64,000 bases of DNA from an uncultured Rikenellaceae bacterium (GCA_964638545.1 CAZXAM010000012.1:6911-70910); one strand, 5' to 3'. Positions 41,572 through 48,715 are shown, counted from the stretch's first letter. Notes: generated by a model not told the origin, from the letters alone. Translations and numbers: made by a program.

Positions 41572-42054
41572 CTATTCATATTCTTTCAGGATGTTCCTGA
41601 CATCGTCAGGAGCGACCCGGCCGTATGTTTTATCGCCGACCATGACAACAGGCGCCAGTCCGCAGGCTCCAACGCATCTCAGGCTCGACAGTGAGAATTT
41701 GCCGTCAGGAGAAGTCTGTCCAACCTGCATTCCAAGCTCTTTCTTGAACTCATCCAGTACTTTCTCAGCACCACGCACATAACAGGCAGTGCCCATGCAA
41801 ATGCTTATCGGGTGCTTGCCCTTTGGCGTCATAGTGAAGAAAGAGTAAAATGTCACTACTCCGTAAATTTTTGCAATGGGAACCACAAGTTCGGAAGAGA
41901 TAACCTCCTGCACTTCGGCAGGAAGATATCCGAAATGTTCCTGGCATTTGTGAAGGACATTGATCAGCTCCTGCGGATCATTTTTGAAAGATGCGCAGAT
42001 CTCTTTGATCTTGTTAACATCTTCCTGTCTCAGTTCTATTTTGATACTTGACAT
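41572..42054 (-). CDS. hydC: NuoE-like [2Fe-2S] subunit of NADH-dependent [FeFe] hydrogenase (HydC)
   Basis: 160 aa with the thioredoxin-like 2Fe-2S pattern CMGTACYVRG...CVGACGLAP. Confidence 0.85.
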   Translation of the reverse strand: MSSIKIELRQEDVNKIKEICASFKNDPQELINVLHKCQEHFGYLPAEVQEVISSELVVPIAKIYGVVTFYSFFTMTPKGKHPISICMGTACYVRGAEKVLDEFKKELGMQVGQTSPDGKFSLSSLRCVGACGLAPVVMVGDKTYGRVAPDDVRNILKEYE

Positions 42055-42087: not shown

Positions 42088-43866
42088 TTATTGTTTAACA
42101 ACTATTTTCTTCTTCTTGTCAAAATAATGTGTATGAAGAAGGTGGTGAGCTTTCTCACTGTTAGGCTTGCCTAAGAACTCTTCATACAGTTTAATAATGA
42201 AAGGATTCTCATGCGATTTTCTGAGTGGTTTCTGTTTGTCTTCCCTGTAAAGTGCTGCGGCCCTTGCCTTGATTATGTCTGAGTTGCCATGGTGAAGCGG
42301 TTGTCCGCCGCCGCCGATGCATCCTCCCGGGCAAGCCATGACTTCAATTGCATGGAACTCCGATTTGCCGGCTCTTACGTCATCAAGGAGTTTTCTTGCA
42401 TTACCCAGGCCGTGAGCTATGCCGATCTTGATTGGCAGACCATCAAAATCTATTGTGGCAGATCTTACACCTTCAAGTCCTCTCAGCTCAGTGAAATCCA
42501 GCCTGTCGAGTTTTTTACCGGTATGTACCTCATAGGCGGTCCTTGCAGCAGCTTCAATCACGCCTCCTGTGGTTCCGAAGATAACACCTGCTCCCGTCGA
42601 TTCGCCGAGAGGAGCATCGAATTCACCTTCTTCAAGGTTGTTAAGGTCCAGATTCGCCTGCTGGATGAAAGCCGCAAGTTCCCTGGTGGATATTGAAAAA
42701 TCGACATCCCTGTTGCCGTCAACTGAAAACTCATCTCTCTGGCATTCATATTTTTTAGCCAGGCATGGCATTATTGAAACAACCACGAGGTTATTCCTGT
42801 TGACTTTGATCTTATCGGCAAAGTAAGTCTTGGCAATAGCGCCGAACATCTGCTGCGGTGATTTTGAAGTTGAAGGCACATCCTTGAGGTCAGGGAAATA
42901 TTCTTCGAAGAAATTTACCCATCCCGGGCAGCAGGAAGTAAGTATCGGGATCCTTGCGGATTTGTCTCCTTTGAGGTGCCTCGTCAGCCTGTCGAGAAGC
43001 TCTGTGCCTTCTTCCATAATGGTAAGGTCGGCAGCAAAATCGGTATCAAATACATAATCGAATCCCAGAGCCCTCAGAGCTGTTACCATTTTGCCTGTAA
43101 CAAGTGTTCCTGGTTCCATTCCGAACATCTCACCCAGCGCGGCACGTACTGCCGGAGCAGTCTGAACTACGACGGTTTTTGTCGGGTCAGCAAGCGCTCT
43201 CAGAACATCCGGGGTATGATCAACCTCAGTAAGCGCTCCGGTAGGGCAGACGGCAACACATTGTCCGCAATAGGTGCAGGTTGAATGTTCAAGGTTTTGC
43301 TCAAATGCAGGAGCAACAGTTGCCATGAAACCCCTGTTAATAGCTGATAATGCTCCGACAGTCTGAACAGTGTTGCACATCATCTCACAGCGACGGCACA
43401 TTATGCATTTATCCTGATCTCTGATAATTGAAGGTGAAGTGTCTTTTTTATACGTCGACTGTGCAGCATATTCCTGACCGGGTATTTCCCTTATTCCGAG
43501 CTGGTGTGCCATTGACTGTAGCTCGCAGTTCCCCGATTTTGCGCATGTCAGGCAATCTTTGGGGTGATCGGAGAGGATGAACTCCATAACTGTTCTGCGT
43601 GCATTGAGCACTCTGGTCGTATGTGTCTTTACAATCATTCCCTCTTCACATTTTGTAGCGCACGAAGGAGCAAGATTTCGTCTGCCCTGAACTTCAACAA
43701 CACAGATACGGCAGCCTGCAGGTTTGTTTTCGATGCACAGGTCGTGCAGTTCCATGTAGCAAAGCGTGGGTATATCAATTTTGAGCTCTTTGGCCGCTTT
43801 GTTAACCGTCGTGCCTTTTGGCACTTCGATTGTTTTGTTATCTATTGTAAGCTTTACAGTTTCCAT
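42088..43866 (-). CDS. hydA: [FeFe] hydrogenase catalytic subunit, group A (HydA)
   Basis: 592 aa. N-terminal 2Fe-2S and 4Fe-4S domains, with H-cluster motifs TSCCPGWV, MPCLAKKYE and ACPGGCIGGGGQP. Confidence 0.95.
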   Translation of the reverse strand: METVKLTIDNKTIEVPKGTTVNKAAKELKIDIPTLCYMELHDLCIENKPAGCRICVVEVQGRRNLAPSCATKCEEGMIVKTHTTRVLNARRTVMEFILSDHPKDCLTCAKSGNCELQSMAHQLGIREIPGQEYAAQSTYKKDTSPSIIRDQDKCIMCRRCEMMCNTVQTVGALSAINRGFMATVAPAFEQNLEHSTCTYCGQCVAVCPTGALTEVDHTPDVLRALADPTKTVVVQTAPAVRAALGEMFGMEPGTLVTGKMVTALRALGFDYVFDTDFAADLTIMEEGTELLDRLTRHLKGDKSARIPILTSCCPGWVNFFEEYFPDLKDVPSTSKSPQQMFGAIAKTYFADKIKVNRNNLVVVSIMPCLAKKYECQRDEFSVDGNRDVDFSISTRELAAFIQQANLDLNNLEEGEFDAPLGESTGAGVIFGTTGGVIEAAARTAYEVHTGKKLDRLDFTELRGLEGVRSATIDFDGLPIKIGIAHGLGNARKLLDDVRAGKSEFHAIEVMACPGGCIGGGGQPLHHGNSDIIKARAAALYREDKQKPLRKSHENPFIIKLYEEFLGKPNSEKAHHLLHTHYFDKKKKIVVKQ

Positions 43867-43884: not shown

Positions 43885-45678
43885 TTACTGAATGATGATC
43901 GCGTCGAACTTGCATTTCTCCATACAAGCTCCGCATTTGATGCAAATCGATGGATTGATAAGGTGAGGTTCCTTTCGTTCGCCTGTGATAGCTCCGACAG
44001 GGCAGACTCTTGCGCATGCCGTGCAACCTACGCAATTAGCCGCGATGATAAAATACTCCATCAGGTCCTTGCATTTGCCTGCAGGACATTTTTTCGCAGT
44101 AACGTGGGCTTCATACTCCTCCCTGAAATTGGTTAGTGTCGAGAGCACCGGATTTGGTGAGCTCTGACCTAATCCGCATAGCGATGTATCCTTAATAACC
44201 AGGCTCATATTTTTTAATCGGTCGAGATCTGCAAGCGAGCCTTTGCCTGTCGTAATCTGCCCTAAAAGCTCGTGAAGGCGTTTATTTCCGACTCTGCAAG
44301 GAGCACATTTACCGCATGATTCTTCAACAGTGAATTCGAGGAAGAACTTTGCTACTGACACCATACAGTCGTCTTCGTCCATTACAATAAGTCCGCCCGA
44401 GCCCATCATCGAGCCGGCAGCCGTGAGGTTGTCGAAATCAATGGGAAGGTCTAAATGCTTTTCAGTAAGGCATCCGCCTGAGGGACCTCCTGTCTGGGCT
44501 GCCTTGAACTTCTTCCCATGTCTTATTCCTCCACCTATTTCAAAAATCACCTCCCGAAGGGTAATTCCCATGGGGACCTCGATGAGGCCTACATTATTTA
44601 TTTTTCCGGCAAGGGCAAAAACCTTTGTGCCTTTAGATTTCTCGGAGCCGATGCCTGCAAACCATTCTGCACCTTTAATAATGATAGGCGAAATGCATGC
44701 GAAGGTTTCGACATTGTTTACGTTTGTGGGTTTTCCCCTGAAACCGGCTTCTGCCGGGAACGGAGGTTTAACTGTAGGTTCTCCGCGAAGACCTTCCATC
44801 GAATGTATCAGGGCTGTCTCTTCACCGCATACGAATGCGCCGGCGCCATAACGGATCTCGATGTCGAAGTCAAAGCCTGTTCCCATTATATTTTTCCCAA
44901 GCAGGCCGTATTCCCTTGCCTGCTTAATAGCGGTTTTAAGGCGTGATACGGCAAGAGGATATTCGGCACGGATATAAATCAATCCGGTATGAGCTTCGAT
45001 GCAATATCCGCAGATTACCATAGCTTCAAGCACTGAATGAGGATCTCCTTCAAGAACAGACCTGTCCATAAAGGCACCCGGGTCACCTTCGTCAGCGTTG
45101 CAGACTACATATTTTTCATCTGATTTGTTTTTATAGGCAATCTCCCATTTGAGACCGGTAGGGAATCCGCCGCCGCCTCTGCCCCGCAGTCCGGAATCCT
45201 TAATGGACTTGATAACTTCAAGAGGCTTCAATGTTGTCAGCACCCTTGCAAGAGCCTCATAGGCGTCGTGAGCTATTGCATCTTCTATGTTCTCAGGATT
45301 TATGACACCGCAATTCCTGAGGACAATTCTAGTCTGTTTCTTGTATACTGATAATTCCTTTTCTGTTGTGACCGGCTTATTTGTTGCATTATCTTTGAAA
45401 AACAACCTTTCAACCTTCCGGCCTTTCATAATGTGTTCATTCACTATTTCCCTTGCATCCTCGGCAGTCACTCTGGTATATACGGTGTCACCCGGCATAA
45501 CCTTTACAATTGGTCCCAGACTGCAGAGTCCGAAGCAGCCTGTTTTTACGACATGCACGTCATTTTCGAGCGCATTGGCCTCAAGCTCCAGCCTGAGGTT
45601 GTCAATGATGGCTTCACCCTGTCCTCCTGAACAGCTTGTCCCGCCGCAAACCATAATTTGCATTTTCTCTCTTGGCAT
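43885..45678 (-). CDS. hydB: NuoF-like NAD(H)/FMN-binding subunit of [FeFe] hydrogenase (HydB)
   Basis: 597 aa. N-terminal Trx-like 2Fe-2S (VCGGTSC..TGCFGLC), FMN/NADH site (GRGGGGFPTG), a 4Fe-4S site (ESCGKCAPCR), and a C-terminal 2x[4Fe-4S] ferredoxin. Confidence 0.92.
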   Translation of the reverse strand: MPREKMQIMVCGGTSCSGGQGEAIIDNLRLELEANALENDVHVVKTGCFGLCSLGPIVKVMPGDTVYTRVTAEDAREIVNEHIMKGRKVERLFFKDNATNKPVTTEKELSVYKKQTRIVLRNCGVINPENIEDAIAHDAYEALARVLTTLKPLEVIKSIKDSGLRGRGGGGFPTGLKWEIAYKNKSDEKYVVCNADEGDPGAFMDRSVLEGDPHSVLEAMVICGYCIEAHTGLIYIRAEYPLAVSRLKTAIKQAREYGLLGKNIMGTGFDFDIEIRYGAGAFVCGEETALIHSMEGLRGEPTVKPPFPAEAGFRGKPTNVNNVETFACISPIIIKGAEWFAGIGSEKSKGTKVFALAGKINNVGLIEVPMGITLREVIFEIGGGIRHGKKFKAAQTGGPSGGCLTEKHLDLPIDFDNLTAAGSMMGSGGLIVMDEDDCMVSVAKFFLEFTVEESCGKCAPCRVGNKRLHELLGQITTGKGSLADLDRLKNMSLVIKDTSLCGLGQSSPNPVLSTLTNFREEYEAHVTAKKCPAGKCKDLMEYFIIAANCVGCTACARVCPVGAITGERKEPHLINPSICIKCGACMEKCKFDAIIIQ

Positions 45679-45698
45679 GATCTTTCCTCCTCAGGGTA

Positions 45699-46118
45699 TT
45701 AATTTATGGATCTGTAATTGACAGGGAGTATCCCGTCGACATACTCGCCGTTCTTGACGTATTTCTCAATAATCTCGTCAGCTTTCAGCTTGTCGACATT
45801 ACCGAAAACGACTGGTTCCTGCCCCGGGCGTTTTACTTCGATGGTAGGTTCTGCATAGCTGTACCCCAAGTCTCCTGTTCCGATAACATCAGCGTCGATG
45901 TTCCTTTTTTCGAATTCCGTCTTAATGAAATCATGTATTCCCTTTGCACCCGATGCAAGTCCGCTTGTTCCCATATGAACTCTGACACGGATCTTTTCGG
46001 TACCGTAGATCCGCTTCAGGGCTTCAGCTTTTAATTTCTTTAGATCTTCATGTGATTTAATTACTTTCATATTCACTTGATTTACAAGTTTATAATGAGA
46101 ATGGTTCGATAAATTCAT
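45699..46118 (-). CDS. Cysteine-free thioredoxin-like-ferredoxin-fold protein; first gene of the hyd operon (HydD-like?)
   Basis: 139 aa. Aligns to the Trx-like 2Fe-2S domain at the HydB N-terminus, but all four Cys positions are replaced. The start may be M17 (46070). Confidence 0.6.
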   Translation of the reverse strand: MNLSNHSHYKLVNQVNMKVIKSHEDLKKLKAEALKRIYGTEKIRVRVHMGTSGLASGAKGIHDFIKTEFEKRNIDADVIGTGDLGYSYAEPTIEVKRPGQEPVVFGNVDKLKADEIIEKYVKNGEYVDGILPVNYRSIN

Positions 46119-46130
46119 TGTTTCCGGTCA

Positions 46131-46138
46131 CAAAATTA
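46131..46138 (-). promoter_or_regulatory. Candidate Bacteroidota -7 promoter box (TAATTTTG) for the hyd operon
   Basis: The plus strand reads CAAAATTA, the reverse complement of TAnnTTTG. It lies 13 nt upstream of ATG 46118 and 61 nt upstream of ATG 46070. Confidence 0.4.
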
Positions 46139-46147
46139 ATATTTTAT

Positions 46148-46182
46148 TTGTTAATAAAATAACAATGTTAATAAAATAACAA
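46148..46182. promoter_or_regulatory. Two tandem 18-bp Rex-like palindromic boxes (TTGTTAATAAAATAACAA, aTGTTAATAAAATAACAA)
   Basis: A perfect 17-bp direct duplication (46150-46166 = 46167-46183). Each copy matches TTGTTAA-N4-TTAACAA with 1-2 mismatches. It lies just upstream of the -7 box of the hyd operon. Confidence 0.45.
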
Positions 46183-46462
46183 TATTTTAAAATTGTTCTA
46201 AATAAGAAGCATTTAGCATTAAAAAGATGCTTTTGTGTTATCAATGGAACAAGTCAATCTTTATGCTCTCTAATTTACAAAATCAATTATTGCCTTAAGG
46301 TAAAAACCTATTTTATCTTGACACCTGCAAGTGAAATAATTAGGATGAAAACTTTTTCAGGATCTTTCACACAAAGAATGTAATACATTTCATCTGCCGC
46401 GAATCCACTGCTTTTATACAATGTCTTCGCTGAAATCAAATGTGTTTATGTTTTAAAAACCT

Positions 46463-46470
46463 TATTTTTG
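46463..46470 (+). promoter_or_regulatory. Candidate -7 promoter box (TATTTTTG) for the S9 peptidase gene
   Basis: Exact TAnnTTTG match 45 nt upstream of ATG 46515. It lies inside the track's longer ORF (46440), which argues for the shorter start. Confidence 0.45.
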
Positions 46471-46514
46471 TTACCCAATCTGAATACTGTAATTATATGA
46501 TCAATGCTATACCT

Positions 46515-48680
46515 ATGAAAAAGACCAGCCTGCAGATAAGCTTGTTAATACTGTTAACAATACTCACTACAGAAAATTCCGGGATCTTCGCTCAAAGGCC
46601 GATGCGTGGTACCGACCAGGCAGCAATTATCGGCTGGACAGATGATACACATTATTTAATGCGTAAACCTGATGACGACAAGAAAATGGTGACTATGAGT
46701 GTAGACATCAGGAGTGGCGTGAGCAAGTTAGTTCCGCCTTCAAAGTCAGAGCGCGAACTGCTGCTTGAATCACTTCCTGCCGGAGTGACAATTGGAATGA
46801 ATGACATTATCAGTCCCGATATGAAAAGCGCAGTCATCTTAAAGGATAATGACCTGTGGCTATACACAAAAGGGGACAAAGAGATTAAGAGGCTTACAAC
46901 CGATGATAAGCAGGAAGTGAATGTCCGTTTTTCGCCTGAAGGAAAAAAGCTGGCATATACAAAAAACAGGGACTTATATGTATATGATATTCAGGCTGGC
47001 AAAGAACTGAGGCTTACAACCGATGCTTCAGAAAATGTTTATAACGGCTACGCCGCATGGGTATATTATGAGGAGATTCTCGGAAGGCCCAGCCGCTATG
47101 CTGCTTTCTGGTGGTCCCCCGACGGAAACAGGCTGGCTTATCTGAGGTTTGACGAAACTGAGGTGCCTGTATTCACTCTTAACCGTCTCGATGAACCCGA
47201 CGGAGTTCACGGGATCCTTGAGGTGGTACATTATCCGAAACCTGGAGATCCGAATCCAAAGGTGAAAATGGGAATTGCAGATATAGCCTCCGGGAAAACG
47301 ACCTGGGTGAAGACTGATTACTCAATAGATCAGTACATTGCATGGCCTTTCTGGACACCCGACAGCAAAAAGCTTGCTATACAGGTTCTTAACCGTGATC
47401 AGAACAATCTTAAAATCATTCTCGCCGATCCATTTACAGGAGATTTCAGCCAGATATATGAAGAGTCGTGGAAGACATGGATCGAGTTCCATGAGGATAT
47501 CTGGGTTATGAAGAACAACAGTGGTTTTATCATCAGAAGCTATAAGAATGGATGGGAAAATCTTTATTACATAAGCTGGGATGGGCGTCAGATAGCACAG
47601 CTGACCAACCTGGCTTTCAGAGTCACATCCATTGACAGGGTTGATGAGGATATGAAAATGGTATACTTCACTGCTACGGGCTCCGAATCAACTGACAGCC
47701 ATGCTTTCCGTGTCGGTCTCGACGGGAAGAACCTCCTTCAGCTTACAAACGGAAACGGGACACATAGTGTTAACATTTCGCCAAAAGGAAGCTACTATAT
47801 CGATACCTGGAACAGTATTTCAAGCACGGGCTCGATAATTGCATATGACCGGAAAGCCAGGATGCTTAAGGAAATTCATAAATTCGAACAGCTGGACTTC
47901 AATCCTGCAGAAAATGCAAAATCTGAATTTGTAAAGATCAAAACCTCTGATGGATTGTTCGATATGCCGGCAATAATAACATACCCTGTCAATTTCGATC
48001 CTTCAAAGAAATATCCGGTAATTTTCAACATCTATGGAGGTCCGGATTCAAAAAACATCTCCAACCGGTGGCAGGGAACCAATGCTTCATGGTATTCACA
48101 GAACGGTATAATAACCTTTGCAGTCGATCACAGGGGATCAGGACAGTTCGGGAAGAGAGGACTTGACTATCTGCACCGTTCACTCGGTAAATGGGAGGTG
48201 CTTGATTATGAGGATGCAGTTAAATGGCTGAGAACTAAATCGTATGTCGACCCTGCAAGGGTTGGGATCACGGGAACCTCTTACGGGGGATATATGACTT
48301 GCATGGCTCTGACTAAAGGCGCAGATTACTGGACCCACGGATTTGCAGGATCATCTGTGACTGACTGGAGACTCTATGATGATGTTTATACCGAAAGATA
48401 TATGGACACGCCCCTGGAAAATCCTGAAGGATACAGGGAAGGATCAGCCCTGACGTTTGTTGCGGGTTACAAAGGCAAGCTATACCTCAATCATGGCGAT
48501 ATGGATGATAACGTCCATATGCAGAACTCGATCTATCTTATCTCGAAGCTTCAGGATGCGGGTAAAACATTCAGCTTCATGATTTACCCCGGAGGCAGGC
48601 ATGGATGGGGAGGAGCCAAATCGTTACACTCACGAAATGAGGCAAATATGTTCTGGATGGAAAGCTTTTTCGGGAAATGA
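46515..48680 (+). CDS. S9 family serine peptidase, dipeptidyl-peptidase IV-like
   Basis: Signal peptide MKKTSLQISLLILLTILT, a DPP-IV N-terminal beta-propeller, and the catalytic motifs GTSYGGY, D..DDNVH and GGRHGW. Confidence 0.85.
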   Translation: MKKTSLQISLLILLTILTTENSGIFAQRPMRGTDQAAIIGWTDDTHYLMRKPDDDKKMVTMSVDIRSGVSKLVPPSKSERELLLESLPAGVTIGMNDIISPDMKSAVILKDNDLWLYTKGDKEIKRLTTDDKQEVNVRFSPEGKKLAYTKNRDLYVYDIQAGKELRLTTDASENVYNGYAAWVYYEEILGRPSRYAAFWWSPDGNRLAYLRFDETEVPVFTLNRLDEPDGVHGILEVVHYPKPGDPNPKVKMGIADIASGKTTWVKTDYSIDQYIAWPFWTPDSKKLAIQVLNRDQNNLKIILADPFTGDFSQIYEESWKTWIEFHEDIWVMKNNSGFIIRSYKNGWENLYYISWDGRQIAQLTNLAFRVTSIDRVDEDMKMVYFTATGSESTDSHAFRVGLDGKNLLQLTNGNGTHSVNISPKGSYYIDTWNSISSTGSIIAYDRKARMLKEIHKFEQLDFNPAENAKSEFVKIKTSDGLFDMPAIITYPVNFDPSKKYPVIFNIYGGPDSKNISNRWQGTNASWYSQNGIITFAVDHRGSGQFGKRGLDYLHRSLGKWEVLDYEDAVKWLRTKSYVDPARVGITGTSYGGYMTCMALTKGADYWTHGFAGSSVTDWRLYDDVYTERYMDTPLENPEGYREGSALTFVAGYKGKLYLNHGDMDDNVHMQNSIYLISKLQDAGKTFSFMIYPGGRHGWGGAKSLHSRNEANMFWMESFFGK

Positions 48681-48697: not shown

Positions 48698-48715
48698 TTG
48701 TTATATTTATAACAG
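48698..48715. promoter_or_regulatory. Rex-like palindrome TTGTTATATTTATAACAG upstream of pntAA
   Basis: Shares TTGTTAW-N4-ATAACAR with the hyd boxes. It lies 46-63 nt upstream of ATG 48761. Confidence 0.3.

Follow-up and report, generated by a model that had tools for sequence, protein, structure and literature searches.

Two adjacent palindromes lie directly upstream of an NADH-linked [FeFe] hydrogenase operon in the window, by which we mean the whole 64-kb stretch of DNA that was analysed, and they raise the question of which regulator would bind there. An initial annotation had proposed that they are operators of Rex, the NADH/NAD+-sensing repressor. The evidence assembled here makes it likely that the two palindromes are conserved as a double operator to which an NADH/NAD+-sensing repressor of the Rex family would bind; this repressor would be encoded elsewhere in the genome, and a rex gene is presumably present in this organism. 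The window was compared with 80 orthologous hyd loci (L001-L080, 962 kb), fetched after a HydB scan that gave at least 595 related stretches, and with a further set of contigs that carry rex genes.

The hydrogenase operon and its upstream region

The features of the window to which the text refers are the following:

41572..42054, minus strand: HydC, NuoE-like [2Fe-2S] subunit (Pfam 2Fe-2S_thioredx, E 6.7e-52)
42088..43866, minus strand: HydA, catalytic [FeFe] hydrogenase subunit (Pfam Fe_hyd_lg_C and Fe_hyd_SSU)
43885..45678, minus strand: HydB, NuoF-like NADH-/FMN-binding subunit with Fe-S domains
45699..46070, minus strand: first gene of the operon, encoding a small cysteine-free protein of 123 aa, with a conserved ATG
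46131..46138, minus strand: predicted -7 promoter box with the Bacteroidota sigma-A consensus TAnnTTTG
46149..46164: core of the predicted proximal operator, TGTTA-N6-TAACA (46148-46165 as an 18-mer with flanks)
46166..46181: core of the predicted distal operator, TGTTA-N6-TAACA (46165-46182 as an 18-mer with flanks)
46236..46251: weak site with one mismatch, 54 nt past the distal operator
46515-48680, plus strand: DPP-IV-type peptidase, followed by the pntA/pntB transhydrogenase genes
48699..48714: third perfect site, 46 nt before the pntA start codon
48761-49891: pntA, NAD(P) transhydrogenase alpha subunit

With 904 bits, HydA exceeds the cut-off of 765 set for the NCBIfam model NF040763 ('NADH-dependent [FeFe] hydrogenase, group A6'). 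HydB matches the Pfam families Complex1_51K, NADH_4Fe-4S, 2Fe-2S_thioredx and Fer4 as well as the NCBIfam model nuoF_fam (482 bits), and HydC also matches the NCBIfam NuoE/HoxE families. An H-cluster subunit, a NuoF-like flavoprotein and a NuoE-like [2Fe-2S] subunit are thus encoded in one operon, which is the HydABC type and agrees with the NADH-linked hydrogenase named in the initial annotation. The enzyme is presumably electron-confurcating.

The longest open reading frame of the small-protein gene begins at ATG 46118 (139 aa), and the form that begins at ATG 46070 has 123 aa with the N-terminus MKVIKS. The ATG at 46070 is kept in 7/7 aligned loci while that at 46118 is not (L001 has no upstream ATG), and the gene therefore most likely starts at 46070. 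Residues 43-139 of the protein, in the numbering of the 139-aa form, are conserved in 78 of the 80 loci. The protein belongs to no Pfam family; a match to the 2Fe-2S ferredoxin family is weak (E 0.0016) and far below the cut-off.

Given this start codon the non-coding region spans 46071-46514, so that the boundary previously set at 46119 has to be moved. The description of the control region as AT-rich holds, with a GC content of 26.8% for 46119-46514 vs 44.2% for the whole window. An Rfam scan of 45600-46900 at E≤1 returned two chance-level matches only, and this stretch therefore contains no known riboswitch or sRNA.

Within the control region, a repeat search and reading of the sequence place the 17-mer TGTTAATAAAATAACAA at 46149-46165 and again, 100% identical, at 46166-46182. 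The same repeat had been reported one base out of register, as 46150-46166 = 46167-46183. The 18-mer TTGTTAATAAAATAACAA (46148-46165) matches TTGTTAA-N4-TTAACAA at 13/14 positions and the 18-mer ATGTTAATAAAATAACAA (46165-46182) at 12/14, exactly as first counted. Perfect copies of TGTTA-N6-TAACA occur three times in the 64-kb window vs an expectation of 0.02 from dinucleotide shuffles, and no extra sites in the window were gained when G/T was permitted at position 4 of the half-site.

The -7 box of Bacteroidota sigma-A promoters has the consensus TAnnTTTG and occupies positions -12 to -5 (PMC9723704). A box of this type on the hyd strand, TAATTTTG (46138..46131), is found 10 nt from the nearer palindrome and is conserved in the relatives, and hyd transcription is predicted from it to start near 46126 on the minus strand. 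Relative to this predicted start, the distal site covers approximately -55 to -40 and the proximal site approximately -38 to -23, so the proximal site takes the place of the -33 element. Both the -7 box and the position of the palindromes over the -33 region had been recognized in the initial annotation. With the start codon at 46070 the hyd leader is ≈56 nt long.

The leader itself contains a palindrome, ACTTG-TAAAT-CAAGT, which occupies 46075-46089 on the minus strand and ends 5 nt short of the conserved start codon (5-19 nt from ATG 46070). L001, L004 and L005 keep its CTTGTAAATCAAG, L002 and L007 keep it in part, and a hairpin formed by the palindrome could affect translation. On the other side of the intergenic region, a -7 box TATTTTTG is found at 46463-46470 on the plus strand, 45 nt before the start codon of the DPP-IV-type peptidase (46515). 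The divergent peptidase gene would therefore have its own promoter, separated from the operators by ≈300 nt. In L001, L002 and L004 the peptidase gene is not a neighbour of hyd.

Two further sites in the window resemble the palindromes of the pair. The one-mismatch site at 46236-46251 (TGTTATCAATGGAACA) has a counterpart in L001, and L003 and L004 repeat only its ATAACA half; its status as an operator is doubtful. The third perfect site, TGTTATATTTATAACA, would make pntA a possible extra member of the regulon, fitting a regulon of NAD(H)-linked genes. It is absent before pntA in L001, L002, L004 and L005, and for this reason it is not counted as evidence for a regulon. No TAnnTTTG box was seen beside it, and its function is uncertain.

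Conservation of the paired sites in related hydrogenase loci

Among the matches listed, the closest relatives of HydB are found in Bacteroidales MAGs, with up to 87% identity; a HydB identical to that of the window is recorded solely on a 3.3-kb Logan read-assembly contig. The related hyd loci retain the order small protein-HydB-HydA-HydC. The comparison of orthologous upstream regions that had been suggested showed one or more sites at the 5' end of the cluster in 59/80 Bacteroidales hyd loci. In 34 loci the sites stand right before the small gene, as in the window, and in 25 they are found ≈4 kb farther upstream. The position of the sites is hence tied to the beginning of the transcription unit and not to a particular first gene.

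For 7/80 loci the upstream sequence was too short to judge, and in nine others sites are absent although the upstream flanks are long. Several of these nine belong to Carboxylicivirga, Saccharicrinis, Salinivirgaceae or Prolixibacteraceae genomes. When the nine loci, and three more with nothing but stray one-mismatch sites, were searched for other motifs, GTTA-N8-TAAC did not occur in exact form, and TGTGA-N6-TCACA was matched, with one mismatch, at a few scattered places only. Two of the 80 loci come from MAGs labelled as Chloroflexota (L012, JBLNAO010000189.1) and Hyphomicrobiales (L064, JBGRPZ010000075.1). They have the same gene order, and their HydB proteins are 75 and 71% identical to that of the window, respectively. 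Their hyd operons probably represent binning contamination rather than gene transfer.

The motif is far more frequent than the AT-rich background would give. The 962 kb of the 80 loci contain 93 perfect inverted sites, compared with one everted site, one direct repeat and 0-3 sites for control spacers of 4, 5, 7 or 8 nt. Sites with at most one mismatch are concentrated upstream of hydB (152 in 410 kb) vs downstream of it (25 in 552 kb). More than half of the site clusters (48/70) are pairs exactly 17 nt apart, and TAnnTTTG follows 8-11 nt past the last site in 44/70 clusters; in another class it is ≈30 nt away. The family-wide consensus is tTGTTAT-wwww-ATAACAa, with T as the base after TGTTA in 109/180 cases. 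The commonest site sequence across the loci is TGTTATTTTATTAACA, whose spacer agrees with the majority base at most positions.

When the window is aligned with L001-L005 and L007, its six closest relatives, one block proves invariant, [TGTTA-N6-TAACA]-N-[TGTTA-N6-TAACA]-RATAA-nnTAT-TAnTTTTG, and the sequence farther upstream is unalignable. The arms of the operators and the TAnTTTTG box are invariant in this seven-way alignment, and the spacers vary. The upstream member of the 17-nt-spaced pair is kept in all six relatives and in many other loci.

These comparisons bear on whether the pair has a function at all. With two copies that are 100% identical, in a region of 27% GC, the palindromes might be a recent tandem duplication without function or a low-complexity feature that arose by chance in AT-rich intergenic sequence. 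However, relatives whose HydB is only 70-87% identical carry both sites, still 17 nt apart but with spacers that differ; everted, direct or mis-spaced versions of matched composition are 30-90 times rarer than the motif; and the shuffle expectation for the window is as low as stated above. Nor are the orthologous loci misassembled copies of one sequence, since both spacers and flanks differ between them. A recent duplication is therefore rejected, and the probability that we assign to either of these origins is close to nil. The initial annotation had spoken of a duplication; the identity of the copies stands, but the pair is not of recent origin, because distant relatives keep it with differing spacers. 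The copies in the window are identical because both are close to the commonest form TGTTATTTTATTAACA.

The geometry of the promoter might also be taken to mean that the palindromes are part of the core promoter, as an extended -33 or UP-like element, or that they are activator sites and not a repressor site. The distance to the -7 box is fixed in 44/70 clusters and the proximal palindrome overlaps the expected -33 TTTG, as such a reading would have it. The sites are dyad-symmetric, however, and they are also found downstream of the -7 box (at 1682 in L050, at 1024 in L053 and at 5013 in L096, one of the rex-bearing contigs treated below). Some clusters fall into the class ≈30 nt from the -7 box, and the distance to the start codons of rex genes varies between 26 and 75 nt. 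Such placement is not expected of promoter elements, and we regard this explanation as highly improbable.

The motif accompanies rex genes in related Bacteroidales

The shape of the motif alone does not prove Rex, since half-sites with the 5-N6-5 spacing are common to Crp-type sites. We therefore turn to the rex genes themselves. No rex could be found in the 64-kb window by tblastn, with nothing below E = 1 for Bacillus and Thermus Rex queries and likewise nothing below E = 1 for two Bacteroidales Rex sequences; the Bacillus and Thermus queries do detect the Rex of L050. This locus, a Bacteroidetes MAG contig, is the only one of the 80 hyd loci with rex within the fetched flanks (1/80). Its Rex has 218 aa with the Pfam domains PF06971 and PF02629 and matches PDB Rex structures at E 6e-32. 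With the NCBIfam model NF003996 ('redox-sensing transcriptional repressor Rex') it reaches 218.7 bits, where the cut-off is 138.

The L050 protein has 560 homologues at E≤1e-20, some of which are named at NCBI as 'Rex [Bacteroidales bacterium]', '[Bacteroides sp.]' or '[Bacteroidota bacterium]'. The rex loci drawn on were L050 and the contigs L082-L096. The Rex proteins that were looked up are encoded on contigs of other assemblies and on one Logan read-run contig, with no overlap with L001-L080.

In L050, rex is divergent from the orthologous hyd cluster and three perfect sites lie between them. The same divergent arrangement is seen in L082, L085 and L096, where the 17-nt site pair lies between the two; across the four loci, the shared rex/hyd intergenic region has 2-3 perfect sites. 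In every rex locus examined (11/11), the rex start codon is preceded at a distance of 26-75 nt by a palindrome that departs from TGTTA-N6-TAACA in no more than one position, for example TTGTTACGATTATAACAT, TTGTCACAGTAGTAACAT and AAGTTATAAGCGTAACAT. The spacers of these palindromes contain GC, so that the arms are the conserved part. Their position before rex in 11/11 loci indicates a probable autoregulation of rex in these relatives. Together with the sites in the shared rex/hyd intergenic regions, it supports the assignment to Rex which the initial annotation had made from the resemblance of the box.

Several of the rex genes are linked to a second class of hydrogenase. In L087, L089-L091 and L093-L096, rex heads a rex-hoxF-hoxU-hoxY-hoxH operon for an NAD-linked [NiFe] hydrogenase, and in L096 it stands between the hox operon and the [FeFe] hyd cluster. 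A Bacteroidota origin of several of the rex-hox loci fits, as Por_Secre_tail proteins are encoded nearby. Several rex-hox loci also have, a few kb upstream, genes for a second hydrogenase of the [NiFe] class, accompanied by HdrA-like and FlpD genes.

The way in which the half-sites vary is a further point of comparison. Among the 25 tandem partners with one mismatch, the change is T to G at position 4 of the half-site in 13/25, and G2 or T3 is changed in 0/25. The substitution turns TGTTA into the canonical half-site TGTGA, and this degeneracy is, by its pattern, Rex-like. The general Rex consensus is TTGTGAANNNNTTCACAA (PMC6391272). In both L021 and L027 a TGTTA-type site is paired with CTGTGAATATTTTCACAA, which agrees with that general consensus at 13/14 specified positions.

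The palindromes could still be real operators of another dimeric regulator, either a member of the Crp/Fnr family or an uncharacterised Bacteroidota factor, with a likeness to Rex boxes that arose by convergence. Sites of the Crp/Fnr family read TGTGA-N6-TCACA and TTGAT-N4-ATCAA. Like these, the motif is a dyad-symmetric 16-mer with 5-bp arms and a 6-bp spacer, so that Crp sites share its geometry. There is no rex within the 64-kb window, and in L056 and L066 Crp-like ORFs are found just downstream of hydC. Yet in these two loci the sequence upstream of the hyd cluster is devoid of sites. A Crp homologue could not be identified in the window either, by tblastn or by Pfam analysis of its eight ORFs of 190-240 aa; among these eight and two larger ORFs the only regulators recognized by Pfam were two ECF sigma factors. 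The arms, TGTTA and TAACA, differ from those of Crp/Fnr sites at position 4, and the main degeneracy of the motif is the G/T at that position which is typical of Rex. Unlike Crp/Fnr sites, the motif is associated with rex genes (all 11 rex loci and the divergent rex/hyd regions) and with no Crp/Fnr gene. Because the Crp-neighboured loci L056 and L066 are without the motif while the motif follows rex, we consider a regulator of this other kind unlikely, and a Rex-family repressor remains our preferred candidate for the factor that binds the pair.

A proposed model for Rex control and its relation to known systems

In the mechanism that we propose, each inverted repeat of 16-18 bp would bind one Rex dimer. 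At a low NADH/NAD+ ratio, Rex dimers would occupy both sites, 17 bp apart from centre to centre, and cover approximately -55 to -23 of the predicted promoter. Bound in this way, Rex is expected to occlude the -33 region and to block RNA polymerase, and the two dimers may bind cooperatively. When NADH/NAD+ rises, NADH-bound Rex would leave the DNA and the operon would be transcribed. The hydrogenase could then re-oxidise NADH through H2 production, which would close a homeostatic loop.

In most relatives the hyd cluster has a further neighbour that might take part in its regulation. A six-gene module, which encodes in order a DRTGG protein, an HATPase, a HydS-like sensory [FeFe] protein, a second DRTGG protein, a PHP protein and a second HATPase, precedes hyd in 60/80 loci and fills the ≈4-kb interval mentioned above (1729-5476 in L050, for instance, and 1231-4981 in L096). 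The module could not be found in the 64-kb window, and the closest relatives are without it next to hyd.

A more far-reaching and speculative model would be that Rex in Bacteroidales acts through an obligate two-dimer operator, in which the 17-bp phasing replaces the -33 element. In most relatives this operator would work in series with the six-gene module for H2 sensing and phospho-signalling, and rex itself would stand at the head of a [NiFe] Hox operon. In such a phylum-specific circuit, Rex would be the centre at which NADH and H2 signals are integrated over both hydrogenase classes; the lineage of the window would have lost the adjacent module and would depend on Rex alone. We put this forward tentatively and find it rather doubtful as a whole.

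Across anaerobic Bacteroidales the multimeric NADH-dependent hydrogenase is broadly conserved, as seen from the at least 595 HydB-related stretches. In our literature search we found no description of how Bacteroidales decide when to vent reducing power as H2. The same search, which had incomplete coverage, gave no described Rex regulon in Bacteroides or Bacteroidales, in line with the initial annotation, which was aware of no characterised Rex regulon in Bacteroidota; nor did it give a description of tandem Rex boxes. What we offer here is a model comprising a variant of the Rex box, a fixed tandem over the -33 region, autoregulation of rex and a link to Hox, and the motif can be used for reconstruction of the Rex regulon across Bacteroidales genomes. 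It introduces no new principle, since in Firmicutes and Thermotogae hydrogenases are already known to be controlled by Rex.

Rex operators are reportedly found before hydrogenase operons in Firmicutes generally and in Thermotoga. The clostridial operator, named in the initial annotation as the matching variant, does have the consensus TTGTTAANNNNTTAACAA (Ravcheev et al., 2012, as cited in PMC5367854). With the operators of Clostridium acetobutylicum, C. kluyveri and C. pasteurianum the sites studied here share the TTGTTA...TAACAA arms in an 18-bp dyad. Both are also placed at promoters of NADH-linked fermentation or redox genes, and in both cases rex is often found beside its targets and is autoregulated, in the Bacteroidales by prediction. 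Whereas an A follows TGTTA in the clostridial box, a T is preferred here (TTGTTAT-wwww-ATAACAA), and the Bacteroidales box is therefore a variant of the clostridial box and not the same. Further differences from the clostridial operators are the arrangement, mostly as strict 17-nt tandem pairs, the Bacteroidota -33/-7 promoter and the phylum, Bacteroidota.

The resemblance to Thermotogales and to Caldicellulosiruptor/Thermoanaerobacterales is mainly one of regulatory layout. There too, an NADH-sensing repressor acts before [FeFe] (and [NiFe]) hydrogenase operons, and for Caldicellulosiruptor the reported set of predicted Rex targets includes hydrogenases as well as rex itself (PMC6391272). Sensory genes of the HydS/kinase/phosphatase type are associated with hydABC in those groups as well. 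Unlike in those groups, the half-site is TGTTA in most of the Bacteroidales copies, with TGTGA variants in the same architecture. Experimental binding data exist for systems of the Thermotogales/Caldicellulosiruptor type, while the Bacteroidales operators are predicted from sequence. A Rex operator before a hydrogenase operon is thus already known, as in Caldicellulosiruptor (PMC6391272); what is new is the phylum, the variant of the box that prefers T, and the union of a strict 17-bp tandem with a promoter of the Bacteroidota -7 type.
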